Positions 1,913 through 58,895 of a stretch of 64,000 nt of DNA are shown piece after piece. Each line of letters opens with the position of its first letter. The stretch's first letter is position 1. The notes under the pieces are model-generated. The model worked only from the letters and a program-made list of their open reading frames with translations. It did no database searches and had not been told where the DNA came from. The position numbers were made by a program, and so were the translations under genes. The stretch lies in the NCBI GenBank assembly GCA_045588325.1, contig JAZNEA010000057.1:1089-65088 (forward strand), in the 5' to 3' direction. The stretch comes from Clostridia bacterium (GTDB taxonomy: Bacteria; Bacillota; Clostridia; RGIG7378).

Positions 1913-2051
1913 GTGTGCCTGCTTGATGGTATCAGTCGGGTCTTGCGCAATGAAAGCCTGTGAACCTTGTCAGGTCCGGAAGGAAGCAGCAATAAGCGGA
2001 TCCTTTCATGTGCCGTAAGTTAGCCTTGCTGATACCATCAAACGGGCACAC
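1913..2051 (+). ncRNA. ffs: Signal recognition particle RNA (4.5S/scRNA-type, ffs)
   Basis: It contains the invariant domain-IV motif CAGGUCCGGAAGGAAGCAGC. A long terminal helix pairs 5' GUGUGCCUGCUUGAUGGUAUCAG with 3' CUGAUACCAUCAAACGGGCACAC. It lies directly upstream of dnaX, as in B. subtilis scr-dnaX-yaaK-recR. Confidence 0.8.
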
Positions 2052-8849: not shown

Positions 8850-10970
8850 ATGACTTATCGATCCATTCTAAAATCTCTTGCATTACTCATCATTTTTAGC
8901 ATGCTTATGTGTCCTGTTATTGGACAGGCAGCTACGGGTACCATCACAGGCAGTGACGTTAACCTTCGTCAAGGCGCTGGTACTAATTCAGCAGTTCTTA
9001 CCACTTTGGATAAGGGCGATGTTGTCAATGTTCTGAGTACACAGGGAGATTGGGTCAAGGTTACTTTTGGCAGTTATACAGGATACGTCTTTGGCACATA
9101 TGTTAAGACAACATCCGCAGGCACAGGTACTGTTACCGGAGATTATGTCAATCTCAGAGATGCAGCAGGTACCAACTCCAACGTTCTCACCTGCTTGAGG
9201 GCAGGCTCTAAGGTGGAGGTTATCGAGAAGACCGGCAACTGGTATAAGGTTCAGTATGGCAGTTACGTAGGATATATGTCTGCCAATTACATCAGCACAG
9301 GCGCAACGGTTACAACTCCTACTCCCACACCTACAGCAGCACCCACTGCCTCCCCCAACACAGGTACTAATGCGACACCTACAGCTGCACCTACAGCAGC
9401 ACCTACAGCTAAGCCTCAGGACGGCGCAGGCACAGGTATTCTCACAGGCGATTATGTCAACTTCCGCAAGGAGGCTAACAGCTCCAGCGCAGTTTTGGAT
9501 TGTCTGAGAGCAGGATCCAAGTTCACCGTATACGAGAAGGTGGGCAGCTGGCTCAAGATTAAGTACAACAACCAGACAGGATATATTTATGCATCCTACG
9601 TCAACGTTCAGTGGACAAATACATCCACTCCTGCACCTACACCAACCCCCTCTGGCAACCAGACCATCACTCTGGAAACAGGCACGGGCAAGGTTACAGG
9701 AGATGTGGTTAATGTAAGGTCTGGAGCAGGGACAAGCCACTCCGTAATTACATCCTATAAGTATGGCACAGAGGTTAAGGTCCTTGGAAAGTCTGGCGAG
9801 TGGTACAAGATTTCTAAGGGCAGCACTACAGGATATATGCATAGCGCATACGTTTCTGTTAAGTGGGACACAGTGACTGTCACACCTGCACCTACAGCAG
9901 CGCCAACAGCGACACCTACAACGGCACCTACAGCCACACCTACAACGGTACCCACAGAGCCTACACCTACACCTACGGCCACACCTACACCTACGGCCAC
10001 ACCGGTGCCTACACCTACGGTTAAGCCTACAGCAACTCCCAATCCCGATGCAGACTTTACTGTAAACGACAACGGAGTTATCGTACTGGACAAGGCATTG
10101 ACCGAGTATGTTTACGCCAAGATTAAGGTCACAGCTTCTGCTGTTAATGTCAGAGCCGGAGCGGGCACAAATTATGACGTTATCTATACTGTAACCAATG
10201 GCGATGAACTTATGCTCTTTGACATTGTTGGAGACTGGGCTCTTATAGCCTTTAACAATCAGTTTGGTTGGATCAGCAAGACGCTTACATCTGCGGCAGA
10301 TTGCCACAGACTTAAGATTACAGGATCTGACCTTAATGTCAGAGAGACCGTTCTCAGTGGCAAGGTTATCGGCCAGCTGCAGAAGGGCAACCTGGTATTG
10401 GGATGTCAGGTCAGCTACGGCTGGTACAATGTCATGAGCTATGATGGCAAGTACACTGGTGCCAAGAGTTGGATTTCTGGCAATTACACAACCAATGCAG
10501 ACGATGGTAAGATTATCAACGAGACAGTTCCCAAATATATCAGGGAGAACAACATTGTAACTGCAGAGGTAGTCAAGGAGACCGACAGAGACAAGATTAT
10601 CAATGCAGCAAAGCAGTACCTGGGAGTTCCCTATGTATACGGCGGACAGACCCCCAGTGGATTTGATTGCTCAGGTTACGTTTATTACGTATATCAGCAG
10701 GTTCTGGGCCTCGAGCTGGAGAGAGTTGCAGCCAGCCAGGCTACACAGGGAGTTCACAAGGTTCTCGCGGAGCTCCAGCCTGGAGACCTGGTGTTCTTTG
10801 ACACAGATGGTACAAGTAGCCACATCAACCATGTTGGTATCTACCTGGGAGACAACATGTTCATACACTCCTCATCAGGCAGTGGCAAGGTCGTTATCTC
10901 TCAGCTGTCCGGATTCTACTCCAGAACCTACATGACAGGCAGAAATATTATCGACTACATGGAGTATTAA
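8850..10970 (+). CDS. Secreted peptidoglycan endopeptidase with a signal peptide, five bacterial SH3 (SH3b) repeats separated by Pro/Thr-rich linkers, and a C-terminal NlpC/P60 domain
   Basis: The signal peptide is MTYRSILKSLALLIIFSMLMCPVIGQA. The GDxVNxRxGAGT...WxKV SH3b motif repeats five times. The NlpC/P60 catalytic Cys is in GFDCSGYVYYVY and the His in HVGIYLG. Confidence 0.85.
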   Translation: MTYRSILKSLALLIIFSMLMCPVIGQAATGTITGSDVNLRQGAGTNSAVLTTLDKGDVVNVLSTQGDWVKVTFGSYTGYVFGTYVKTTSAGTGTVTGDYVNLRDAAGTNSNVLTCLRAGSKVEVIEKTGNWYKVQYGSYVGYMSANYISTGATVTTPTPTPTAAPTASPNTGTNATPTAAPTAAPTAKPQDGAGTGILTGDYVNFRKEANSSSAVLDCLRAGSKFTVYEKVGSWLKIKYNNQTGYIYASYVNVQWTNTSTPAPTPTPSGNQTITLETGTGKVTGDVVNVRSGAGTSHSVITSYKYGTEVKVLGKSGEWYKISKGSTTGYMHSAYVSVKWDTVTVTPAPTAAPTATPTTAPTATPTTVPTEPTPTPTATPTPTATPVPTPTVKPTATPNPDADFTVNDNGVIVLDKALTEYVYAKIKVTASAVNVRAGAGTNYDVIYTVTNGDELMLFDIVGDWALIAFNNQFGWISKTLTSAADCHRLKITGSDLNVRETVLSGKVIGQLQKGNLVLGCQVSYGWYNVMSYDGKYTGAKSWISGNYTTNADDGKIINETVPKYIRENNIVTAEVVKETDRDKIINAAKQYLGVPYVYGGQTPSGFDCSGYVYYVYQQVLGLELERVAASQATQGVHKVLAELQPGDLVFFDTDGTSSHINHVGIYLGDNMFIHSSSGSGKVVISQLSGFYSRTYMTGRNIIDYMEY
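9889..10030 (+). repeat. Pro/Thr/Ala-rich tandem codon repeat (ACNCCNACN units) encoding linker [46 protein letters not shown] second tract lies at about 9300-9420.
   Basis: The low-complexity tandem repeat is visible in the DNA. Near-identical tracts recur in the genes at 12930-13000, 37200-37390 and 40200-40330. Confidence 0.8.
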
Positions 10971-10978
10971 ATAATGAG

Positions 10979-11006
10979 GTCCTCACAGAAATGTGGGGAC
11001 TTTTTT
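10979..11006 (+). terminator. Rho-independent terminator (GTCCTCACA...TGTGGGGAC + T6)
   Basis: A hairpin plus U-run sits immediately after the NlpC/P60 stop. Confidence 0.6.
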
Positions 11007-11063
11007 GATTGACAGAAAAGTTATATAATTTGTTTATAGATAAAAAGCTTTGGAGGAACAAAC

Positions 11064-13184
11064 ATGAAGAAGATATGTGTTATCACCGTTATTGTTTTGG
11101 CCGTGCTAGCTTTAGTATGCGGCGTATCCTTTGCTGACGAAAAGCCCACCTCTGGACAGTCAGGGGAAACTGTAACTTGGGTATACGATGAGGCCACTGC
11201 GACACTAACTTTTTCTGGAACGGGACCAACAGCACCTAGTTATGCTTCTGGACGACCTTGGGAAGTATGGAAGAATCAGGCAAAGCATATTGTGGTAGAA
11301 GAAGGAATAGATCAAATTCAATCCTCCTTTATTAAAGGATTTGAGAAGGTAGAGGATATATCTCTTCCTAGCACTTTAACATCTATAGGAGGTTCAGTCT
11401 TTGAGGGGTGTAAGAGCCTAAAATCCATAGTAATTCCAGAGGGTGTTACTTATTTGTCTCAACATGCATTTAAGGATTGTATTGCACTAGAAGACATAAA
11501 GTTGCCGGATTCTCTTTTGGAAGTAGAACCATATACTTTTGAGGGATGTACTTCTTTGCGTAGTATTGTTATCCCAGATAAGGTGAAAAAGGTAAGATTG
11601 ACCTGGTTTGCAGGTTGTACAAGCCTGATTTCCATAACATTTGGCGAAAGTGTACAGTCTATAAGGCATATGGACCAGGAGACACAGTATAGAATAAGGA
11701 CAATGATATTTAAGGGCAGTGCTCCAAATTTGGAGGAGTATACCTTGCATAGACTTACAGTAACGGTATATTGTCCAGCGGGGGACAGCTCATGGAATAA
11801 TTGGCCTGGAACAGAGCAATTCGATACAACAATCAAGCTTGTGCCAGTAAATGATCCGTCCAGCGTTGTTCCTAATTTGGATTTGAATATCTACTCAGGT
11901 TCTTGTGGACAAACGGCAAATTGGGAGTTAAAAAATGGTGTTTTAAAAATCACAGGAACAGGTAGCGTAACATCTTCTCCTTGGGATCCTGTCGCAGGTG
12001 AAGTGAAAAAGATTGTAATAGAAGATGGCATTACAGAAATTAATTGCAGTTCCGCTTTTGAACCATGCAAAAATGCAACGGAAGTGACCTTATCCAAGAA
12101 TTTAAAGAAATTGGGAGAGACTGCTTTCCAAGGATGTAACATCAAAACATTAACCATTCCTGGAAGCCTAAAGGTTATTCCTAAGAATGCGTTTAGTTAT
12201 TGCCATAAGTTGGAAAAGGTTGTAATTCAAGAAGGGGTAATTAGTATTGAAGACGATGCTTTTTCGAATTGTGAAAAGCTCACCTCTGTGGAAATGCCGG
12301 ATTCCTTGGAATCAATTGGAAAGAGAGTATTTTATAGATGCTCTGCAATGTCATCCCTGGTAATTCCCAAAAATGTTAAGTTCCTAGGGGAGGGATTCTT
12401 TCTGGGGATGAGTAGCCTAAAGGACATTTACTTTATGGGAGACAGGCCAGAGCATGAGCAGACGAACGTCTACGGATTCCAATCATTTACAATACATATT
12501 CCAAATTATTTGTCTTCTTGGAAGGGTGTTGGTGGAGCCTATGGAATAGCTCCAAATAGTGCAATGAGTGTTGTTAAGTACGATTGTACCCATTCTTGTG
12601 ATAAGTGGACCAATGCAGATGGTGACAAGCATACGGCCAAGTGTTCTAACTGCGGCCAAACCGTATCTGCATCACATACATGGACGGAAAAGAGCGTAGA
12701 CAAGACACCAACCTGCACAGAAGCAGGATCCAAGACAATGCAGTGCAAAACTTGTGGAGCAACAAAGGTTGAACCCATAGAGCCCACAGGTCACGCAGCA
12801 GACCGGTCTTTGAACTATCAGCAGAATGAGACCCACCACTGGAAGGACTGCCTAGTTTGTGGAGCCAAGGTAGACGAACAGGAGCACCAGGGAGCAGAGG
12901 AGTGCGAGGTGTGCAGGTATAAGCCAGAACCAACGCCTACACCGGAGCCCACCATAGCGCCTACACCGGAGTCAACGCCGGCACCAGAATCAACGGCAAA
13001 ACCGTCTGCCACTCCAATACCGGAGGCAGGAGACAAGGGCAATACTCCAACACCTGATCCAAGTCAGGACGTAGGAGATCCAAAGCCTGAGAAGAACGAA
13101 ATGCTATGGATAATCGTCGCTGCAGGAGTAGTCGTGGCAGGAGCGGCAGTTGCAGTGCCTATCCTGTTAAAGAGAAAGAAATAG
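11064..13184 (+). CDS. Cell-surface BspA-type leucine-rich-repeat (LRR_5) protein with a Cys-rich module, a Pro/Thr-rich stalk and a C-terminal TM anchor
   Basis: It has a signal peptide and many repeats of the ...FxxCxxLxxIxIPxxVxxIxxxAF... type. A C-x2-C-rich segment (CTHSCDKW...CSNCG...CKTCG...CLVCG...CEVC) precedes the PEPTPTPEPT stalk. The hydrophobic C-terminus ends KRKK. Confidence 0.75.
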   Translation: MKKICVITVIVLAVLALVCGVSFADEKPTSGQSGETVTWVYDEATATLTFSGTGPTAPSYASGRPWEVWKNQAKHIVVEEGIDQIQSSFIKGFEKVEDISLPSTLTSIGGSVFEGCKSLKSIVIPEGVTYLSQHAFKDCIALEDIKLPDSLLEVEPYTFEGCTSLRSIVIPDKVKKVRLTWFAGCTSLISITFGESVQSIRHMDQETQYRIRTMIFKGSAPNLEEYTLHRLTVTVYCPAGDSSWNNWPGTEQFDTTIKLVPVNDPSSVVPNLDLNIYSGSCGQTANWELKNGVLKITGTGSVTSSPWDPVAGEVKKIVIEDGITEINCSSAFEPCKNATEVTLSKNLKKLGETAFQGCNIKTLTIPGSLKVIPKNAFSYCHKLEKVVIQEGVISIEDDAFSNCEKLTSVEMPDSLESIGKRVFYRCSAMSSLVIPKNVKFLGEGFFLGMSSLKDIYFMGDRPEHEQTNVYGFQSFTIHIPNYLSSWKGVGGAYGIAPNSAMSVVKYDCTHSCDKWTNADGDKHTAKCSNCGQTVSASHTWTEKSVDKTPTCTEAGSKTMQCKTCGATKVEPIEPTGHAADRSLNYQQNETHHWKDCLVCGAKVDEQEHQGAEECEVCRYKPEPTPTPEPTIAPTPESTPAPESTAKPSATPIPEAGDKGNTPTPDPSQDVGDPKPEKNEMLWIIVAAGVVVAGAAVAVPILLKRKK

Positions 13185-19101: not shown

Positions 19102-19980
19102 ATGATCAGGAGTATGACAGGCTTTGGTCGTGGAGAGGCCAGCGACAGCACATATAGATTCAGAGTTGAGATTAAGTCTGTAAATAGCAGATACGCAGAT
19201 ATTACCATTAAGGGTCCCAGGATTTTTGCCCCATACGAGGACAGGATCAAGGCCACTATTACTAAGAAACTCCGCCGTGGCAAGATGGATGTCTTTGTGT
19301 ATTACGAGACACTTAGCGTTACAGAGGGTATGGTAGGAGTTAACCTTCCACTGGCAGCTGCATACAGAGACGCCATAGCCGATTTGGGACAGCAGCTGGG
19401 CATGGAGAACGACATCAGACTGTCCAACATTATTCGCATGCCAGACGTATTCGGATCAGGCAATATGGATGTGAACATAGACGACAATTGGCCCACATTG
19501 GAGCAGGCCGTCAATATGGCAGCAGATCAGCTGCAGAGCATCAGCGCCAGAGAGGGCACCTATTTGATCGAGACAATTCGCCAGGGCAAGGACAAGATTA
19601 TGGCCAAGGTGGATGAGATTGCAGAGCGCTCCCCCGTGGCCATAGAGGCCAACTTTGCAAAATACAGGGCGCGCATTGAGAAACTGTTGGGAGATACTGC
19701 TGTGGATGAGGCCAGACTCCTGCAGGAGGCAGCCATCATGTCTGAGAAGTACGATATTAACGAGGAAATCGTCAGACTGCGCAGCCACTTTGTGCGCATG
19801 GAGGAGATTATTGCCGAGGACGACATGATTGGCAAAAAGTTGGACTTTCTCATTCAGGAGATGAACAGAGAGACCAACACCATTGGCTCCAAGGCCAACG
19901 ACACAGAGATTTCTCGCAGAGTCGTATTCATGAAGAACGAGATTGAGAAGATCCGCGAACAGGTCCAGAACCTGGAGTAA
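19102..19980 (+). CDS. yicC: YicC-family stress-induced protein
   Basis: The N-terminal MIRSMTGFGRGE... motif and a C-terminal DUF1732-type region are present. Confidence 0.9.
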   Translation: MIRSMTGFGRGEASDSTYRFRVEIKSVNSRYADITIKGPRIFAPYEDRIKATITKKLRRGKMDVFVYYETLSVTEGMVGVNLPLAAAYRDAIADLGQQLGMENDIRLSNIIRMPDVFGSGNMDVNIDDNWPTLEQAVNMAADQLQSISAREGTYLIETIRQGKDKIMAKVDEIAERSPVAIEANFAKYRARIEKLLGDTAVDEARLLQEAAIMSEKYDINEEIVRLRSHFVRMEEIIAEDDMIGKKLDFLIQEMNRETNTIGSKANDTEISRRVVFMKNEIEKIREQVQNLE

Positions 19981-20021
19981 AATAGATACAAACCTTGGTC
20001 TGAACGCAAATTGGAGGAAAC

Positions 20022-21422
20022 ATGATACCGTACGAAGGCAGGGAGCCATATATTTTCGTGAGTTATGCGCATAAGGATAGAGACATTGTCTTGTCCATAA
20101 TCGAGGCCATGTCTCAGCACGGATTTCGCATTTGGTATGATGCGGGCATAGAGGCCGGAACGGAGTGGCCTGAGTACATAGCTGAGCATCTGGAGAATGC
20201 AGCTGCGGTTATCGCGTTTCTGTCAGAATCCGCTTTGAGTTCTATTAACTGCCGTCAGGAGATTAATGAGGCCATCAATCAGAAAAAGGAGTTTCTGGCC
20301 ATTCACCTCCATGAGCTCACCATGACAGCAGGCATGCGTATGAGACTTAGCCTGATACAGGCAATGTTTATGTACCGACATACCAACATGGAGAGCTTTT
20401 ATAACTCTCTCTTCAATGCAAAGATTTTGAAACCATGCCTGAGTGAAATAGGACAAGTTGCTGAACAGCCAGTGACAGAGGTTGTACCTGAGACAAAAGC
20501 AGAGCCGGAGGCTTTGCCAGAATCCACCCCAGATGACTTTGTGATTAGTCAGGATGTGTTGATTTCATATAAGGGGAAAGGCGGTATTGTAGTCGTTCCT
20601 CAGGGAGTGAAAAGCCTTGGCTATGATATGATGGGGTATGGGTTGTGCGAAATAGCGACACCTGATTTTAAGAACGGATTCCAAAAAACCAATGAGATTA
20701 CAGAAGTTATTATTCCCGAAGGTGTAGAGGGTATTGGGTACAGAACCTTTGCTTATTGTGAGAATTTAGTCAGAGTTCACTTGCCAAAGAGCTTAAAATA
20801 CATAGATGACTTTGCTTTTTACAGATGTTTTGAGCTGCAGGAGGTAATTATCCCCCAGGATAGCCAGCTTGAGAGTATAGGCACAAGCGCCTTTGAGAAC
20901 TGTGCCAGTCTTACAAAGATGAGACTCCCAAAGAGAGTGACCTTTATTGGCAAGGATGCATTCAGGGCATGCAGGAGTTTGTCACATGTAAGTATCCCCT
21001 TGGATGCAAAGTTGGATAGGGTGCAGGAGGATACCTTTCACAACTGTTCGGGTCTTGAGGAGGTAACTCTTCCCAATAGCGTCGTAACTATTGAACCGAG
21101 AGCTTTTTATGGTTGCGAGTCCCTGTGGGACATAAACATACCTAATTCTTTGAAAGAGATCAAAGAGGCGGCATTCAAAAACTGCGAAAAGCTAGAATTA
21201 GTAGATTGTGGATGGCATAGTTCCCTGGAGAATATCGAAAAAGAGGCTTTCAGAGGATGCAGGTCATTGAAAACAATAAGTCTTTCGGATACCCTAAAGA
21301 CGATTGATGAGGATGCATTTGCAGAGTGTATGTCTTTGGCCAGTGCAGAGGTACCTAAGAAGACAAAAATGCCAGCGTTTAAGCAGGTATTCCCAAAGCA
21401 TACTGTTGTTAAGCGCACTTAG
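20022..21422 (+). CDS. Cytoplasmic TIR_2-domain protein fused to BspA-type leucine-rich repeats (TIR-LRR)
   Basis: The N-terminal ~130 aa (PYIFVSYAHKDRDIVLSIIEAMSQHGFRIWYDAGIEAGTEWPEYIAEHLENAAAVIAFLSESALSSINCRQEINEA) is a bacterial TIR_2 fold. There is no signal peptide. The C-terminal ~300 aa are LRR_5 repeats. A good RBS AATTGGAGGAAACATG precedes the start. Confidence 0.8.
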   Translation: MIPYEGREPYIFVSYAHKDRDIVLSIIEAMSQHGFRIWYDAGIEAGTEWPEYIAEHLENAAAVIAFLSESALSSINCRQEINEAINQKKEFLAIHLHELTMTAGMRMRLSLIQAMFMYRHTNMESFYNSLFNAKILKPCLSEIGQVAEQPVTEVVPETKAEPEALPESTPDDFVISQDVLISYKGKGGIVVVPQGVKSLGYDMMGYGLCEIATPDFKNGFQKTNEITEVIIPEGVEGIGYRTFAYCENLVRVHLPKSLKYIDDFAFYRCFELQEVIIPQDSQLESIGTSAFENCASLTKMRLPKRVTFIGKDAFRACRSLSHVSIPLDAKLDRVQEDTFHNCSGLEEVTLPNSVVTIEPRAFYGCESLWDINIPNSLKEIKEAAFKNCEKLELVDCGWHSSLENIEKEAFRGCRSLKTISLSDTLKTIDEDAFAECMSLASAEVPKKTKMPAFKQVFPKHTVVKRT

Positions 21423-21443
21423 AGGATAAAGGAGTCAATAGCA

Positions 21444-21725
21444 ATGAAATTAGTTAACGTAGGATTTGGCAATATGGTTTCCAGCGATAAGCTTGTGGCG
21501 ATTGTCGGTCACCAGTCTGCCCCTGTCAAGAGAATGATTCAGGAGGCCAGAGATTCAGGTTACCTTATTGACGCCACCTATGGCCGCAAGACCAGGGCAG
21601 TTATCATCATGGACAGCGGGCATATTGTGCTCTCTGCTATTCAGCCAGAGACAGTGGCAGGCAGATTCGAGGATAACGGAGATGCACCAATTGGAGAAGA
21701 AGAGGAGGAAAACCGGGAAAATTAA
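21444..21725 (+). CDS. remA: Extracellular matrix/biofilm regulator RemA (DUF370)
   Basis: [21 protein letters not shown]...[20 protein letters not shown] is the highly conserved RemA/YlzA sequence. Confidence 0.85.
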
Positions 21726-21737
21726 CCCGGTTTTTTC
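21712..21737 (+). terminator. Rho-independent terminator overlapping the remA stop (ACCGGGAAAATTAACCCGGTTTTTT)
   Basis: Perfect 6-bp stem plus T6. Confidence 0.6.
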
Positions 21738-21826
21738 TGTGACTTGAAAAAAAGCCCTATATGGTATATTATTAATCGGTTAAATTAGCATTTTTGGGTC
21801 CAGTACCCAGATTCGGAGGAAATATA

Positions 21827-22117
21827 ATGATTTTAAGCCCATCCATTACAGGATTGCTGGAGAAGGTAGACAGCAGATACACATTGGTAGTTCTCGCTGC
21901 TAAGAGAGCCAGAGAGATTAACAATTCCAGACTGGGACAGCCCGAGCCTGATGACGATGTCAAGGCTGTTACTATCGCTGTCAACGAGATCCTCGACGAC
22001 AAGATTACCTATACCAGAGAGCCCCACAAGGACACATGCTGCCAGGAGTGCGCAGAGGATGAGATTGAGGTAACAACGGAGACACCTGCTAGTTCAGAGG
22101 AGACTCCCGCAGAATAA
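21827..22117 (+). CDS. rpoZ: DNA-directed RNA polymerase subunit omega
   Basis: [31 protein letters not shown] matches RpoZ. It has an RBS GGAGGAAATATAATG and an acidic C-terminal tail. Confidence 0.85.
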
Positions 22118-23545: not shown

Positions 23546-26173
23546 ATGGCAAACAAGTATTGTTACCTCTTTACAGAGGGCGACGCCAGCATGAGAGAGC
23601 TGCTGGGCGGCAAGGGTGCTAACCTGGCCGAGATGACCAAGATTGGTCTCCCTGTACCTCAGGGATTCACAATCTCCACAGAGGCATGTACTCAGTATTA
23701 CGAGGATGGCCGTCAGATCAACCCCGCAATTCAGGCAGAGATCAATGACTACATCGGCAAGATGGAGGAGATTACAGGCAAGAAGTTCGGAGACCTGGAG
23801 AATCCTCTGCTGGTTTCTGTACGTTCCGGTGCTCGCGCATCCATGCCTGGTATGATGGATACAATTTTGAACCTGGGTCTTAATGAGCAGGTTGTAGAGG
23901 TTATGGCCAGAAAGTCTGGCAATGCTCGTTGGGCATATGACTGCTACAGAAGATTCATCCAGATGTATTCCGACGTTGTTATGGAGGTGGGCAAAAAGTA
24001 TTTCGAGGAGCTCACCGACAAGATGAAGGAAGAGAAGGGCGTTAAGCTGGACGTTGAACTTACAGCAGACGACCTTAAGGAACTGGCAAACCAGTTCAAG
24101 GCAGAGTACAAGGCCAAGATCGGACAGGACTTCCCTTCCGATCCCAGAGAGCAGCTCATGGGTGCTGTTAAGGCCGTATTCCGCAGCTGGGACAACCCCC
24201 GTGCTAACGTATACCGTCGTGACAACGATATCCCTTATTCTTGGGGTACAGCCGTTAACGTTCAGGCCATGGCATTTGGTAACATGGGCGATGACTGCGG
24301 TACTGGCGTAGCATTCACCAGAGATCCCGCCACAGGTGAGAAGAAGCTCATGGGCGAGTTCCTGACAAATGCTCAGGGTGAGGACGTTGTAGCTGGTGTT
24401 CGTACACCAATGCCCATCGCACAGATGGCAGACAAGTTCCCCAAGGCATTTGAGCAGTTCCAGAACGTATGTCAGATTTTGGAGAACCACTACCACGACA
24501 TGCAGGATATGGAGTTCACCATTGAGAATGAGAAGCTCTACATGCTGCAGACACGTAATGGTAAGAGAACAGCACAGGCAGCTCTCCAGATTGCAGTTGA
24601 CCTGGTAGCTGAGGGCCACAAGACCAAGGAGGAGGCAGTCCTCATGATCGACCCTCGTAACTTGGACACATTGCTCCACCCTCAGTTTGACGTAAAGGCT
24701 CTTAAGGCCTCTACTCCTATGGGCAAGGGCTTGGGAGCATCTCCCGGAGCCGCATGCGGACAGGTTGTATTCTCCGCAGAGGATGCAGAGGTTTGGAACA
24801 ACGCAGGCAAGAAGGTTATCCTCGTTCGTCTCGAGACATCTCCCGAGGATATTACAGGTATGAAGGCAGCTCAGGGTATCCTGACAGTTCGTGGTGGTAT
24901 GACATCCCACGCAGCTGTTGTTGCCCGCGGTATGGGTAAGTGCTGTGTTTCCGGTTGTGAGAAGATTGTCATGGACGAGGAGAACAAGCAGTTCTCTTTG
25001 GCAGGCAAGACATTCCACGAGGGAGACTACATCTCCATCGATGGTTCTACAGGTAACATCTACGATGGCGTTATCCCAACAGTAGATGCTGAGATCTCCG
25101 GCAACTTTGGCACTATCATGGGCTGGGCTGACGAGTTCCGCACACTTAAGGTCAGAACAAATGCAGATACACCTACAGATGCTAAGAAGGCTCGTGAGCT
25201 GGGCGCAGAGGGTATCGGTCTTTGCCGTACAGAGCACATGTTCTTTGAGGCAGAGAGAATTGCTGCTTTCCGTGAGATGATTTGCTCCGACACAGCAGAG
25301 GAGAGAGAGGTTGCTCTCGCTAAGATCCTGCCTTATCAGCAGTCCGACTTCGAGCCACTGTATGAGGCACTGGAGGGAACTCCTGTTTGCATCCGTTTCC
25401 TGGATCCACCACTCCACGAGTTCGTACCCACAGAGGACGCAGACATCGAGGCATTGGCTAAGGCTCAGGGCAAGGAAGTTGACGAGATTAGGGCAATTAT
25501 CACATCTCTCCATGAGTTCAACCCCATGATGGGACACCGTGGATGCCGTCTGGCAGTAACATATCCCGAGATTGCCAAGATGCAGACAGCTGCAGTTATC
25601 CGCGCAGCTATCAACGTACAGAAGAAGCATCCTGAGTGGAAGGTTCGTCCCGAGATTATGATTCCTCTGGTAGGCGACGTTAAGGAGCTCAAGTTTGTTA
25701 AGAACGTAGTTACAGCAACTGCAGATGCTGAGATTGCAGCAGCAGGCGTTGAGCTGGACTATGAGGTTGGTACAATGATCGAGATCCCCAGAGCATGTCT
25801 CACAGCTGATGAAATCGCAGCTAACGCAGACTTCTTCTGCTTTGGTACAAACGACCTTACTCAGATGACATACGGCTTCTCCCGTGACGATGCAGGTAAG
25901 TTCTTGAATGCCTACTACGATGGCAAGATCTTTGAGAACGATCCCTTTGCTAAGCTGGACCAGACAGGTGTTGGCAGGCTGATGAACATGGCAATTTCCT
26001 TGGGTAGACCAGTTAACCCCAACTTGCACGTAGGTATCTGCGGCGAGCACGGCGGTGATCCTACATCCGTTGAGTTCTGCCACCAGTTGGGTCTGGATTA
26101 CGTATCCTGCTCACCTTACAGAGTTCCGATTGCAAGACTTGCAGCAGCACAGGCTGCTATAAAGAGCAAGTAA
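23546..26173 (+). CDS. ppdK: Pyruvate, phosphate dikinase
   Basis: It is 876 aa, with the phospho-His domain (...GGMTSHAAVVARGMGKCCVSGC...) and a PEP-utilising TIM barrel (...NDLTQMTYGFSRDD...). Confidence 0.95.
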   Translation: MANKYCYLFTEGDASMRELLGGKGANLAEMTKIGLPVPQGFTISTEACTQYYEDGRQINPAIQAEINDYIGKMEEITGKKFGDLENPLLVSVRSGARASMPGMMDTILNLGLNEQVVEVMARKSGNARWAYDCYRRFIQMYSDVVMEVGKKYFEELTDKMKEEKGVKLDVELTADDLKELANQFKAEYKAKIGQDFPSDPREQLMGAVKAVFRSWDNPRANVYRRDNDIPYSWGTAVNVQAMAFGNMGDDCGTGVAFTRDPATGEKKLMGEFLTNAQGEDVVAGVRTPMPIAQMADKFPKAFEQFQNVCQILENHYHDMQDMEFTIENEKLYMLQTRNGKRTAQAALQIAVDLVAEGHKTKEEAVLMIDPRNLDTLLHPQFDVKALKASTPMGKGLGASPGAACGQVVFSAEDAEVWNNAGKKVILVRLETSPEDITGMKAAQGILTVRGGMTSHAAVVARGMGKCCVSGCEKIVMDEENKQFSLAGKTFHEGDYISIDGSTGNIYDGVIPTVDAEISGNFGTIMGWADEFRTLKVRTNADTPTDAKKARELGAEGIGLCRTEHMFFEAERIAAFREMICSDTAEEREVALAKILPYQQSDFEPLYEALEGTPVCIRFLDPPLHEFVPTEDADIEALAKAQGKEVDEIRAIITSLHEFNPMMGHRGCRLAVTYPEIAKMQTAAVIRAAINVQKKHPEWKVRPEIMIPLVGDVKELKFVKNVVTATADAEIAAAGVELDYEVGTMIEIPRACLTADEIAANADFFCFGTNDLTQMTYGFSRDDAGKFLNAYYDGKIFENDPFAKLDQTGVGRLMNMAISLGRPVNPNLHVGICGEHGGDPTSVEFCHQLGLDYVSCSPYRVPIARLAAAQAAIKSK

Positions 26174-26463
26174 TTGAGCCAACATGTTTTTTAGGAACAT
26201 TTGAGATCCCAAAGGATTTCATGAGGAAGAGCGGAAAGCTATATTATGGCGAACACCGTGCCTTCCGGTTCCCGGAAAAGCTTGAATTTAAGTTATTTCT
26301 AGTATAGGGAGTCTGTTAAAGACCCCCTATATTTTTTTATCAAAAATATAAGGTGCTATAAACGGATTAGTATATATGAATCTGTTGTTTGCATTTTTTT
26401 GAAGCGTTCGAGGTATTTTAACAAGAAAATTTCCCGAGCGCTTTTTTGCGTTTGGGGCAAAAG

Positions 26464-26479
26464 CGGAAACATGTTTCCG
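26464..26479 (+). promoter_or_regulatory. Perfect 16-bp palindrome CGGAAACATGTTTCCG just upstream of the XRE gene's RBS. It is a candidate operator.
   Basis: The palindrome is self-complementary and about 20 nt upstream of the TTG start. Confidence 0.4.
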
Positions 26480-26498
26480 GTTGAAGGAGGTTTAAAAA

Positions 26499-26834
26499 TT
26501 GTCGAGTTTTACAGCAAAAATGATAAAAGAGGCAAGGATTAATGCTAATCTGTCACAAGAAGAAGCAGCAAAAGCGTTAGGTATTACAGACCGAACTCTA
26601 AGGTCATTTGAAAACAATCAGCATCCGGTTTCGGTTGATGATTTATTGAATATGGCTAAGCTTTATAAAACGGACGTAAGGGAGTTCATCCTAGAAAACT
26701 ATGTTGAGGAAAAAGAAGAGCAGATTCTATGTAATCGGTATGGTTCTTTCCTAAAATTATATGATCAGCTATCGGATAGAGACAAGGAAGATGTAGTTTG
26801 GGTAATCAAGCAAAGAATCAATGGCACAATATAA
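26499..26834 (+). CDS. XRE-family helix-turn-helix transcriptional regulator
   Basis: The HTH_3 motif is ...LSQEEAAKALGITDRTLRSFENNQHPVSVDDLLNMAKLY.... It has a TTG start with an AAGGAGG RBS. Confidence 0.7.
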   Translation: MSSFTAKMIKEARINANLSQEEAAKALGITDRTLRSFENNQHPVSVDDLLNMAKLYKTDVREFILENYVEEKEEQILCNRYGSFLKLYDQLSDRDKEDVVWVIKQRINGTI

Positions 26835-26870
26835 ATATATGCTAATAGCATATACCAAAATGTGATAGAA

Positions 26871-26897
26871 TAAGCATATGCATTACGCATATGCTTA
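26871..26897 (+). terminator. Inverted repeat TAAGCATATGC-ATTAC-GCATATGCTTA followed by a T-rich tract. It is a terminator and/or operator between the XRE gene and the 421-aa gene.
   Basis: 11-bp perfect arms followed by TTTGTT. Confidence 0.45.
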
Positions 26898-26924
26898 TTT
26901 GTTATATACGAGATTATATGTTGA

Positions 26925-28190
26925 GTGTATGCTTATATCAAGCAAGTGATATGGAGGTGTCTTTCGATGTATAGAACAGAGGAAAGCAGCAAAATAGGTG
27001 AATATATTGGAAAGTTGATTGCTAGAAAGTATGGTAAGGATCGTCAGTTTGCAATTGAATATATAAAGTTAAGAGATGGGATAGATGAAGAGCCGGCCCT
27101 AGACGAAATTCAACGTGTAGCAAACAAAATATGTCAGATGAAAAAGATCGGAAAGGGAATACAGATTAATGATTTGCCAATTCTCTCAGAGTTATTGGAA
27201 GTTTCTGTTGATAGTATTCTCAGTGCTGGAAAGGTAGCCAAGCCAGCTCCTACCAGGACGACAAATTATTCTGTAGCTTTTTCCAAAGATAAAAAGATTT
27301 GGAAGGAATATATTGAGAGACCGGATAAACTAATTCTAAATGAGGACGAGTACGGAAAGACAGTTATTGATTATGCGATTGAGTTCGGAAATTATGGTTT
27401 ACTGAAATATTTGATTGATAACGATTATATTTATTTGATTGATGAGGATCAGCAAAAATATTGGGGAACATTTGGTTCAGGTACAACCATAGAAAGAAGA
27501 CCGCCTTTTGAATACGATTTGCTTGAATATAAGATGAAACAGAATGATAGCCTGAGAACAAGTATTATAGCTTTGGCCTTAGAGAATAAAGATTATGGGA
27601 TTCTTGATGAAGCAAAGGCGAGAGAAATACCTTCCCTATATGAAGCATCTTATTTCTATGGCACAGCTCTGGATGTTAAGAAGTATTACAATCAGCAGTT
27701 TATGGATCAGGTTGCCAGGGCATCGGATGAGGTGTTGGTCTACTTCTCATCAGAATTTGAGATAGAAACTAATAGGAAAGCTTTATGCAGATTGACTTTC
27801 CCTTATTTAGGAAAGCTGATTGATATGGCAATTAAGGCCAATAGAAAAGCTACAGCAACTATGTTAAAGAATGCTTCGAAGCATAACCAAGATGTGTTAA
27901 AGGAACTGAAAAAGATTGGCAAAGCTGCTGAAGATTCATTTTCTAGTATTCGACAGTATATGGATGAAAAATCTCTTATGGAAGGAATAATGCAGGATTA
28001 TCATTTTTACGAAGAGAATGATACAGTGTGCTTTCATTCGGGGATAAATTCAGCCGGGAACTTCCAGGGATTATTCTCGACTGTTGTACGAGTAAGTGTT
28101 TCATCTAAGGATGAATATATTAAATCTTTGATTGATGATGTTAATCGTTCATATAATCAGGTTAAGGATTTTGTTTACAAGGAGGTTTGA
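26925..28190 (+). CDS. Hypothetical protein with a split XRE-like HTH at the N-terminus and a ~330-aa helical C-terminal domain, reminiscent of RNPP/Rgg-type peptide-sensing regulators
   Basis: The N-terminus has ...IGEYIGKLIARKYGKDRQFAIEY...KIGKGIQINDLPILSELLEVSVDSIL, an HTH_XRE-like pattern, and the remainder is alpha-helical. The true start may be the ATG at about 26967 (MYRTEE...). Confidence 0.5.
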   Translation: MYAYIKQVIWRCLSMYRTEESSKIGEYIGKLIARKYGKDRQFAIEYIKLRDGIDEEPALDEIQRVANKICQMKKIGKGIQINDLPILSELLEVSVDSILSAGKVAKPAPTRTTNYSVAFSKDKKIWKEYIERPDKLILNEDEYGKTVIDYAIEFGNYGLLKYLIDNDYIYLIDEDQQKYWGTFGSGTTIERRPPFEYDLLEYKMKQNDSLRTSIIALALENKDYGILDEAKAREIPSLYEASYFYGTALDVKKYYNQQFMDQVARASDEVLVYFSSEFEIETNRKALCRLTFPYLGKLIDMAIKANRKATATMLKNASKHNQDVLKELKKIGKAAEDSFSSIRQYMDEKSLMEGIMQDYHFYEENDTVCFHSGINSAGNFQGLFSTVVRVSVSSKDEYIKSLIDDVNRSYNQVKDFVYKEV

Positions 28191-58819: not shown

Positions 58820-58895
58820 GGGGCATTAGCACAGTTGGTAGCGCGCTACATTCGCATTGTAGAGGTCGCCGGTTCGACTCCGGTATGCTCCACCA
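58820..58895 (+). tRNA. tRNA-Ala (anticodon CGC) with encoded CCA
   Basis: It folds into a cloverleaf with acceptor GGGGCAU/AUGCUCC, including the G3:U70 Ala identity pair. The anticodon loop is UUCGCAU, the T-arm is GCCGG-UUCGACU-CCGGU, and CCA is at the 3' end. A terminator hairpin GCCTCT...AGAGGC + T5 follows. Confidence 0.85.

Follow-up and report, generated by a model that had tools for sequence, protein, structure and literature searches.

A TIR-LRR_5 gene lies between yicC and remA

The window, by which we mean the whole 64-kb stretch of DNA analysed here, contains a gene encoding a 466-residue protein with a TIR domain and BspA-type leucine-rich repeats (LRR_5), with exactly the limits, length and strand that a preliminary description of this DNA had reported (Table 1). 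The flanks of this gene are housekeeping genes (the neighbours are holA, recJ, rsmE, yicC, remA, rpoZ and glyQS), and the gene sits outside any defence island. Both the gaps and the neighbouring genes agree with the operonic placement between yicC and remA that had been described; yicC is the operon gene directly upstream. Inspection and a scan of the yicC-TIR spacer revealed no terminator-like site, in agreement with the earlier reading, and no promoter-like site, so the TIR-LRR_5 gene is probably co-transcribed with yicC. A terminator-like hairpin that overlaps the remA stop codon probably closes the yicC-TIR-LRR-remA transcript. An Rfam search identified no RNA element near the locus.

The preliminary description had also called gmk missing from a conserved yicC-remA-gmk-rpoZ order. 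That order is real in outgroups, where gmk was present at 68 of 79 loci, and the loss of gmk here was upheld: the remA-rpoZ spacer is too small to hold the gene, and a tblastn search of the 64-kb window with a bona fide Gmk as query returned no match. The gene was likewise absent from every locus of the clade that we examined. A sigma-70-like promoter match ahead of rpoZ fills the space held by gmk in outgroups. The rpoZ start is likely the ATG at 21827; the mechanical open reading frame begins at a TTG at 21794, and orthologs are 96-99 aa long.

Table 1. Features of the TIR-LRR_5 locus and of a second LRR_5 gene in the window.
Feature	Position	Strand	Details
Neighbouring LRR_5 surface protein	11064-13184		Signal peptide and C-terminal TM anchor
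yicC (YicC/YloC-family endoribonuclease)	19102..19980	+	YicC-like_N, YicC-like_C; TIGR00255 229 bits
yicC-TIR spacer	19981..20021	+	41 bp; GGAGG ribosome-binding site 20013-20017
TIR-LRR_5 gene	20022..21422	+	466 aa plus stop, ATG start
TIR domain	20022..20441	+	aa 1-140; betaA 11-14 through alphaE 123-131
E80 codon	20259..20261	+	Putative catalytic Glu, NCRQE motif; invariant in family alignments
Linker	20442..20537	+	aa 141-172; acidic, Pro-rich, disordered; pLDDT <50 at 143-166
BspA-type LRR_5 solenoid	20538..21419	+	aa 173-466; N-cap, 10 repeats of 23-25 aa, C-terminal tail
TIR-LRR-remA spacer	21423..21443	+	21 bp; AAGGAG ribosome-binding site 21429-21434
remA	21444..21725	+	Downstream operon gene; Pfam RemA-like 1.1e-35; NF046064
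Terminator-like hairpin	21710..21736	+	AAAACCGGG-aaaattaa-CCCGGTTTTTT; overlaps remA stop codon; fold -15.9 kcal/mol, z = -2.9
Sigma-70-like promoter match	21744..21772	+	TTGAAA-17-TATTAT, ahead of rpoZ; from scan
rpoZ	21827..22117	+	RNA_pol_Rpb6, TIGR00690

The protein joins a TIR domain to an LRR_5 solenoid

Pfam profile searches and an AlphaFold2 model supported the domain assignments that had been made earlier from the sequence. Pfam TIR_2 (PF13676) matched aa 11-97 (E=4e-20; score 73 bits, cut-off 28), and LRR_5 (PF13306) matched the repeats above its gathering score (E=5.8e-61, 204 bits). The alignment-based AlphaFold2 model (mean pLDDT 88) contained an alpha/beta TIR domain at aa 1-140, a disordered linker at aa 143-166 and an LRR solenoid of 10-11 beta rungs at aa 173-466, a layout that corresponds to ~10-11 BspA-type repeats. 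The N-terminal domain had the flavodoxin-like TIR fold (betaA-alphaA-betaB-BB loop-alphaB-betaC-alphaC-betaD-alphaD-betaE-alphaE), with reduced pLDDT in the BB-loop region (aa 41-50). In alignments of orthologs the linker differed in length, and the C-terminal repeats were well kept, together with a conserved tail (KTKMPxFKQVFPKHTVVKR).

As described previously, the protein has no STAND NTPase: the Pfam search detected no P-loop, other NTPase or further effector domain, and the TIR and LRR parts are joined through a 30-residue disordered linker. The protein contains no signal peptide or TM segment (peak 19-residue Kyte-Doolittle hydropathy, 1.19), which supports the predicted cytoplasmic location. 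The second LRR_5 gene of the window does encode a surface protein, as had been noted, with the signal peptide and anchor given in Table 1. We ruled out that the LRR half of the TIR-LRR_5 protein is a recent duplicate of this neighbour, as their identity is only 23-34%.

Four pocket residues are invariant

Residues S14, D40, S74 and E80 were invariant in a 25-sequence family alignment and aligned with S7, D33, S68 and E74 of Cat1, which line the Cat1 NADase pocket. E80 also aligned with the equivalent Glu of 7uxr; its invariance and its alignment with Cat1 E74 point to it as the probable catalytic residue, for which it had already been a candidate. A Cat1 E74A mutant is inactive (PMC12162218), and a conserved Glu alone is no proof of NADase activity (PMC7075850). 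Position -4 from E80 is occupied by Asn; plant TIRs and Cat1 carry a Trp there. A search for the signature motifs of this TIR subtype in the supplementary material of the Weagley 2022 screen of gut TIR NADases (PMC9092222) gave no match.

Comparison with models of known defence systems yielded only weak, domain-level TIR matches in PADLOC and NCBIfam, far under the family cut-offs, and PADLOC (2023) contained no model matching the TIR-LRR_5 protein. Scores against Thoeris ThsB were marginal: 25.6 bits for Pfam ThsB_TIR (cut-off 21.2), E about 1e-3 only for the PADLOC ThsB models, and 18.5 for NCBIfam ThcB4 (equivalog cut-off 220).

The gene is fixed in its clade and carries an exchanged repeat cassette

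The preliminary description regarded the gene as an accessory insertion. All 12 related loci, from five species-level lineages, carried it at the identical position (62-88% identity), and it was missing from 79 of 79 outgroup loci. The gene is thus fixed in the sampled clade and lineage-specific relative to outgroups, and is not a variable island; inside the clade, comparison of the yicC-remA interval places it among core rather than accessory genes. We found no flanking repeats and no integrase at the locus that would indicate insertion of a mobile element.

The gene evolves far more quickly than its neighbours. Its identity was 62-68% where that of glyQS was 97%, remA 90-92% and yicC 86-89%. 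The dN was 3-10x that of the operon partners, and the dN/dS was about 0.15; most flanking genes had values of 0.02-0.09, and rpoZ had 0.14-0.23. The variable cassette consists of the N-terminal repeats, at about aa 175-329 of the protein from the window (aa 196-350 in 487-aa orthologs). Between two alleles with 100% identical TIR and linker, this cassette (aa 196-350) had 61% identity and a dS of about 1.0, and each allele was present in at least three independent assemblies. Since dS in the divergent cassette is high as well, we attribute the divergence to recombination. Point-mutational positive selection on the LRR was unsupported (dN/dS <=0.33, with high dS in the divergent cassette also). 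The dN/dS was <1 throughout and the cassette divergence reflects recombination, so no positive selection is demonstrated.

The TIR subtype heads a modular family

An exhaustive search of representative sequences recovered 926 cluster representatives of this TIR subtype at E<=1e-30. A Pfam scan of the 114 top representatives identified Sel1 in 28, LRR_5 in 22 and TPR in at least 5, as well as MORN, Ig-like and TM modules. The TIR subtype is an N-terminal head fused to varied modules, including Sel1, LRR_5, TPR, TM and Ig-like. The TIR+LRR_5 architecture is one of several such repeat fusions and is frequent in gut Clostridia, with dozens of matches, so it is not a rare architecture.

Equally, a cytoplasmic LRR_5 protein had seemed unusual, and this impression did not hold. 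All 52 TIR-headed LRR_5 proteins lacked signal peptides and TM segments, and no TM segment was found in kinase-headed LRR_5 proteins, so soluble LRR_5 proteins constitute a regular class; nearly all non-TIR LRR_5 matches carry a signal peptide. A relative, P0120, has a TIR-TM-LRR_5 topology. The TIR lies N-terminal of the TM segment in TM-containing relatives and is flanked by basic residues in P0120, which suggests a cytoplasmic TIR in these proteins. In other lineages, paralogs occur in tandem arrays and also as fragmented copies. The linkers of some family members are rich in Pro, Thr and Ala and resemble those of cell-wall proteins.

The gene lacks a defence-island or mobile-element context

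Defence genes are usually patchy in their distribution. Across six inspected family contexts and 14 dereplicated loci we found no conserved partner gene, which fits a self-contained system. PADLOC models matched 2 of 80 neighbour proteins at the 14 loci, and both were kinases. Viral contigs contained one weak TIR match only, and matches in phages or plasmids were to the LRR half only; both observations disfavour a phage or plasmid origin. Our literature searches returned no description of bacterial TIR-LRR, TIR_2+LRR_5 or TIR+BspA proteins. This outcome, the weak PADLOC matches at the TIR level and a report that LRRs seem missing from bacterial TIR systems (PMC11350192) bear out the earlier view that such proteins have not been characterised.

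A proposed sensor-effector role

Two folds, four invariant pocket residues, a soluble topology, placement in an operon, rapid mosaic evolution and a modular family are what we observed directly. With moderate confidence, we propose from these sequence features that the protein is an NTPase-free, single-protein combination of a sensor (the LRR) and an effector (the TIR, as a putative NADase) in the cytoplasm. The immune role is one that we infer, for a gene with no defence island, partner gene or phage-borne copies. The protein would be made as a single, constitutively co-transcribed cytoplasmic polypeptide, and its C-terminal LRR_5 solenoid would bind a foreign protein, with phage proteins as the likeliest targets and specificity set by the variable N-terminal repeats. 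Ligand binding may gather the TIR heads, and this presumed oligomerisation would form a composite NAD+-hydrolysing active site around S14, D40, S74 and E80. Against phage, the predicted result is depletion of NAD+ (abortive infection), with the production of an ADPR-derived signal as the less likely alternative.

In weighing an immune sensor-effector, we counted in its favour the pocket residues, the design of a conserved head and a variable sensor, the validated analogues, the fast evolution, the cassette swap, the tandem paralogs, the soluble topology and the self-contained gene. We counted against it the fixation and synteny in a housekeeping operon over five species-level lineages, the surroundings outside defence islands, the near absence from viral contigs, phages and plasmids, the weak PADLOC and NCBIfam matches, the dN/dS <1 and the Asn at E80 -4.

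Comparison with known TIR systems

Single-protein systems of E. coli, both TIR+TPR (TIR-II) and TIR-only, are proven anti-phage defences (Nat Commun 2024, PMC11350192). The E. coli systems depend on their TIR catalytic residues and respond to structural proteins of phages; portal proteins are what TIR-V and TIR-IX recognise (PMC11350192). As in TIR-II, TIR-V/VI/IX (PMC11350192) and BcTir/Tpr of Bacillus cereus (bioRxiv 10.1101/2023.05.26.542521), a catalytic-type TIR is joined to or paired with a sensor of helical or solenoid repeats, without a STAND NTPase, in a self-contained unit of one or two genes. The TIR-LRR_5 protein resembles the TIR-II type in that the TIR and the repeat sensor share one protein with no obligatory partner. 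It differs from that type in having a BspA-type LRR_5 beta-solenoid rather than TPRs, a host among gut Clostridia and a gene fixed in a housekeeping operon. It belongs to a large uncharacterised family.

The TIR domain, a TIR_2 domain that may also be of the ThsB_TIR type, resembles Thoeris ThsB (types I-IV) in its conserved Glu and in paralogs that may lie in arrays; unlike ThsB, it is fused to an LRR, lacks an adjacent ThsA or reader-effector and reaches only domain-level HMM scores. The NTPase switch (NB-ARC, NACHT or other) of plant TNLs (RPP1, ROQ1) and of bacterial STAND/Avs/bNACHT proteins is missing here; instead a ~30-residue disordered linker joins the two domains directly, and the repeats are BspA-class bacterial LRRs. 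Compared with animal Toll-like receptors the order is reversed, with an N-terminal TIR that keeps NADase-type residues, no TM segment and both domains in the cytoplasm; P0120, by contrast, has the topology of a Toll-like receptor. Cat1 (CARF-TIR), TIR-SAVED, TIR-STING and SPARTA TIR-APAZ also fuse a sensor to a TIR and in those systems the NADase is activated by oligomerisation, but their sensors read nucleotide messengers or guide-target duplexes from partners, whereas the putative sensor here is a repeat of the protein-binding type and has no partner. The extracellular proteins BspA, PcpA, TpLRR and BACOVA_04585 carry signal peptides or anchors; the TIR-LRR_5 protein lacks both and bears a TIR head.

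Alternative explanations

The protein could instead be a non-immune module, serving this lineage as a regulator or scaffold expressed together with YicC and RemA, in which the LRR binds an endogenous protein and the TIR serves in NAD-linked or oligomerising signalling, for example in stress, sporulation, biofilm formation or RNA turnover. We consider this unlikely, although its fixed position inside the yicC-remA transcription unit (12/12 related loci), purifying selection (dN/dS about 0.15), conserved C-terminal repeats and tail, and lack of a defence-island context all fit it, as do the RNA-metabolism genes that often adjoin family members (yicC, pseudouridine synthase, pnp, RNase T). Such a role is harder to reconcile with the 3-10x faster dN than that of the operon partners, the swapping of the N-terminal LRR cassette between near-identical backgrounds, the tandem arrays and fragmented copies in other lineages, and the lack of a conserved neighbour family-wide. 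The absence of the gene from 79/79 outgroup loci argues in the same direction, and indicates that it is dispensable for operon function.

Less probable still is a split system resembling Thoeris. After LRR recognition, the TIR-LRR protein would work as a ThsB-type sensor and produce a second messenger (cADPR or an ADPR derivative), to be read by an effector whose gene lies in another part of the genome. Beside the gene in the window, in six other inspected contexts and among the 80 neighbours of the 14 loci we found no ThsA-like gene (SIR2/SLOG or Macro/TM), and the ThsB model scores were marginal.

TcpB/BtpA, TcpC and TirS are TIR virulence factors, and several bacterial ones lack a classical signal peptide. 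On this precedent the protein might be released through lysis or exported along a non-classical pathway, as an effector or adhesin whose LRR binds host or competitor surfaces and whose TIR blocks host TLR signalling or depletes target NAD+; we regard this as very improbable, since the surface proteins that are the nearest solved structures to this typical adhesin module (among them 4fs7, 4gt6, PcpA and TpLRR) and the Pro/Thr/Ala-rich linkers of some relatives are set against the absence of any signal peptide or TM segment and of secretion-targeting domains recognisable with Pfam, the 0/52 family members with an export signal when non-TIR LRR_5 relatives nearly always have one, the probably cytoplasmic TIR of TM-containing relatives and the lack of adjoining secretion-system genes.

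Implications

TIR-based immunity is common to bacteria, plants and animals, and the pairing of LRR and TIR defines TLRs and TNLs. According to one report, bacterial TIR systems seem to lack this pairing (PMC11350192); in gut Clostridia it is nevertheless common, with both soluble and membrane-spanning forms. Were the protein to be non-immune, it would suggest that anaerobes put catalytic-type TIR domains to a physiological use not yet recognised. Should it be a working sensor-effector, no TIR-LRR receptor could be simpler, since it has no nucleotide switch; it would also offer a tractable case of an LRR alone gating TIR oligomerisation, and would show that a gene for immunity can become a permanent part of a housekeeping operon and yet go on exchanging its recognition cassette. 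More tentatively, we suggest that these proteins may represent a class of NTPase-free TIR-LRR innate immune receptors in bacteria, in which a BspA-type LRR would sense phage proteins directly, exchangeable N-terminal cassettes would set specificity and ligand-driven TIR assembly would kill the infected cell via NAD+ destruction. With the same head in TIR-TM-LRR proteins of Toll-like-receptor topology, this class would be a prokaryotic counterpart of the combined logic of TLRs and TNLs, domesticated here into a core housekeeping operon.

Domain architecture and putative active site of the TIR-LRR protein

The ORF between yicC and remA (see table) is present and codes for 466 aa. Pfam searches of its product recovered TIR_2 at aa 11-97 (E=4e-20; 73 bits, gathering score 28), LRR_5 (E=5.8e-61) and a weak ThsB_TIR match, and found no NTPase or further effector domain. 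A confident AlphaFold2 model (mean pLDDT 88), built on an alignment of 25 family sequences, places a TIR of canonical alpha/beta fold at aa 1-140 and an LRR solenoid with 10-11 rungs at aa 173-466; the linker between them is acidic/Pro-rich and disordered (aa 143-166). As the maximum 19-residue hydropathy is 1.19, the protein contains neither a signal peptide nor a TM segment. With ORF, Pfam domains, model and hydropathy in agreement, the preliminary description of a TIR_2 and LRR_5 fusion lacking NTPase, signal peptide and TM segment is correct, and the protein belongs to both domain families by HMM and by fold.

The top PDB sequence matches of the TIR were the catalytic TIRs 7uxr, Cat1 and AbTIR. 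Residues S14, D40, S74 and E80 align with Cat1 S7, D33, S68 and E74, respectively, which line the NADase pocket, and Cat1 toxicity in vivo is lost in the D33A, S68A and E74A variants (PMC12162218). None of the four varies across the 25 aligned family sequences, and the Glu, which had been proposed as catalytic (E in CRQEINEA), is invariant in a 114-member set also. Because these pocket residues match and stay invariant, the comparison supports an enzymatic TIR; it is no proof, since the conserved Glu is also found in TIRs without reported activity (PMC7075850) and the residue four positions N-terminal of it is Asn, as opposed to Trp in Cat1 and plant TIRs.

A large family of TIR-headed proteins

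Using the TIR alone as query, an exhaustive search returned 16,716 representatives at E<=1e-3, of which 926 remained at E<=1e-30; TIR+LRR_5 proteins are many, in gut and rumen metagenomes. TIR was present in 114/114 top representatives, accompanied by Sel1 (28/114), LRR_5 (22/114), TPR (at least 5/114) and, in others, MORN, DUF6273, FtsK or extra TIR copies. TM segments lie C-terminal to the TIR in about a quarter of representatives (32/134). The TIR head is strongly conserved, with the signature YEGxEPYIFVSYAHKD...GFRIWYDAGIEAGTEWPEYIAEHL...NCRQEIN...GMRMRL, and linkers and repeat arrays vary. The NCBI annotation of orthologs goes no further than 'leucine-rich repeat protein' or 'TIR domain-containing protein'. 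A cytoplasmic LRR_5 copy had been considered unusual in itself; it is instead normal in this family, as 0/52 TIR-headed LRR_5 proteins have an export signal, whereas non-TIR LRR_5 matches almost always have one.

Related architectures were also observed. P0120, a 757-aa protein from an Acutalibacteraceae MAG, has a distantly related TIR (TIR_2 at aa 17-104, 43.5 bits), one TM segment (205-223) preceded by basic residues, and four LRR_5 blocks; this bacterial protein thus has the topology of a Toll-like receptor in the literal sense. Six proteins (P0218, P0251, P0255, P0278, P0294, P0299) carry the window's TIR subtype in single-pass TIR-TM-ectodomain form. In P0228 (1048 aa) and P0293 (940 aa), the same subtype is fused to double FtsK/SpoIIIE translocase motors that have alpha and gamma domains, the TIR standing where the N-terminal membrane anchor usually is. 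Protein-kinase-headed LRR_5 proteins of 660-810 aa without TM (P0012, P0041, P0052, P0053, P0055, P0069, P0096, P0097, P0107, P0110) form a second soluble class of signalling head plus LRR_5.

A fixed, lineage-specific insertion

Genes in the window are ordered comEC, holA, recJ, rsmE, yicC, TIR-LRR, remA, rpoZ, glyQS, ppdK. The 41-bp spacer after yicC has a GGAGG ribosome-binding site and, as previously noted for terminators, no terminator- or promoter-like match; the 21-bp spacer before remA has AAGGAG. Overlapping the remA stop codon is a hairpin (-15.9 kcal/mol, z = -2.9) with a T-run after it, and a promoter-like site precedes rpoZ. From these signals, yicC-TIR-LRR-remA would most simply be a single transcription unit. 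The reported absence of gmk between remA and rpoZ was upheld, and a genuine Gmk query had no match in the entire 64-kb window.

All 12 orthologs recovered with context (62-88% identity, 5 species-level lineages) occupy the same site, and 0/12 have gmk there; one is the sole close GTDB representative, a Clostridia MAG from water-buffalo caecum. The outgroup comprised 79 loci with a YicC identity of at most 46%. In these, remA adjoins yicC, and 68 have gmk nearby; the nearest locus, L009, retains remA-gmk-rpoZ-glyQS. The insertion and gmk loss are therefore fixed and lineage-specific, and do not represent strain-level polymorphism. The gene, first read as accessory, is thus core at clade level by comparison of the yicC-remA interval. 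In two outgroup loci, L080 and L058, gmk is likewise missing from its canonical position, so it has left the yicC-rpoZ block on at least two occasions in Clostridia.

Searches around the gene revealed neither flanking repeats nor mobility genes. Its GC3 (0.48; LRR part 0.45) lies below that of upstream operon genes and glyQS (0.58-0.63), with remA (0.50) and rpoZ (0.55) between, which is compatible with, and no proof of, foreign origin.

Coordinates of features in the window and in compared loci
Feature	Sequence	Position
Small SRP RNA (Rfam, 74 bits)	window	1934-2033
Two exported cell-envelope protein genes	window	8850-13184
YicC endoribonuclease gene, directly 5' of TIR-LRR	window	19102-19980
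TIR-LRR gene	window	20022-21422 (+)
TIR-coding part	window	20022-20441
TIR-coding part, closest relative	L001	6001-6420
Low-GC stretch past ppdK	window	26000-28190
421-aa ORF	window	26925-28190
tRNA (Rfam)	window	58820-58892
Pseudouridine synthase gene	L088	5014-5979
PNPase gene	L092	675-2879
Three tandem paralogs	L092	2993-7581
RNase T gene	L106	4691-5806
Human-gut tandem array	L109	5090-11209
Human-gut tandem array	L120	4824-10731
Kinase-domain gene adjoining TIR-subtype gene	L126	4080-6620
Outgroup yicC-remA-rpoZ	L080	4006-5398
Outgroup yicC-rpoZ	L058	6977-8147
Phage LRR_5 without TIR	PV036455.1	21614-22399

Elsewhere in the window, glyQS starts 5 bp past rpoZ, with no riboswitch or T-box nearby (Rfam). 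Upstream of comEC, one envelope protein (706 aa) has five SH3_3 domains, an NlpC/P60 hydrolase and a signal peptide; the other, likewise 706 aa long, combines LRR_5 with a signal peptide, a Pro/Thr-rich stalk and a C-terminal TM anchor. The stretch past ppdK has a GC of 0.35-0.42 (window mean 0.48), and the ORF within it had no Pfam match.

Mosaic evolution

TIR-LRR orthologs are 62-68% identical to the window protein, against 97% for glyQS, 90-92% for remA and 86-89% for yicC. With dN/dS of about 0.15 (most flanking genes 0.02-0.09; rpoZ 0.14-0.23), purifying selection acts on the gene, though in relaxed form or with faster evolution. Two ortholog loci, L003 and L101, share about 92% nucleotide identity overall and 98-100% in yicC, TIR and linker, with the TIR at 100%; amino-acid identity is 61% across LRR residues 196-350 (dS about 1.0) and returns to 93% in the C-terminal repeats, each allele occurring in at least 3 independent assemblies. 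When the window is compared with its closest relative, it is the TIR that diverges more (dS 0.69 vs about 0.33; 81% identical, with flanks at 96-99%). This mosaic is cassette exchange via recombination, with breakpoints near domain borders; it is no demonstration of positive selection.

Genomic contexts of the family

Other members lie 3' of hprK and a pseudouridine synthase gene, after rpsO-pnp as three tandem paralogs (L092; L093-L095 likewise), near secA, near gatCAB, or adjoining RNase T and PemK toxin genes. In two human-gut loci, a pair of TIR-LRR_5 genes stands in tandem with fragments containing LRR_5 only, apparently copies that were split or frameshifted. Across 14 dereplicated metagenomic loci, LRR_5 was the commonest domain among 80 neighbour proteins, and PADLOC matched two of these, both PD-T4-6-type kinases. 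Viral contigs are all but devoid of the TIR family (one weak match), and in phage and plasmid records the LRR half alone matched, the TIR half not. From these contexts, scans and searches, the family is without a partner gene, defence island or mobile vehicle; paralogs do cluster.

An RNA-metabolism gene (for YicC, pseudouridine synthase, PNPase or RNase T) adjoins the family member in 4/6 inspected contexts. At L126, a kinase-domain protein matching PD-T4-6 defence models adjoins a TIR-subtype gene. Gut phage genomes (records H1-H12), Lachnospiraceae and Ruminococcus phages included, encode BspA-type LRR_5 domains without TIR, 25-35% identical to the LRR half.

Possible modes of action

Composite active sites in Cat1 and other TIR NADases arise by TIR-TIR assembly. 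The best-supported reading, to which we give about an even chance, is that the TIR-LRR protein is a sensor-effector complete in itself: a protein ligand would bind to the solenoid, with variable N-terminal repeats determining specificity, and binding would drive TIR-TIR assembly into a composite active site that hydrolyses NAD+. Single-protein and TIR+TPR anti-phage defences of E. coli depend on TIR catalytic residues, and phage portal proteins trigger TIR-V and TIR-IX (PMC11350192). Such TIR+repeat defences may be closest in working; the TIR-LRR protein differs in sensor class and in its fixed, unusual genomic setting.

That fixity and the housekeeping context are the main backing for a non-immune physiological role linked to the yicC-remA operon, which we consider unlikely. 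A signal generator of Thoeris type whose reader is encoded elsewhere is less probable still, and with no ThsA next to the gene the locus does not qualify as a Thoeris system. An exported effector or adhesin is highly improbable given the protein's topology, and without an export signal it is no surface BspA adhesin. Nor is it an NLR/STAND protein, as it has no NTPase, or a TLR, given the reversed order of its domains and the lack of a TM segment.

LRRs and TM domains have been remarked as seemingly absent from bacterial TIR systems (PMC11350192), a gap that this family therefore fills. Although the non-defence-like genomic context of the gene weighs against its interest, the interest lies in the parallel to TLR and TNL proteins and in a large, uncharacterised family.
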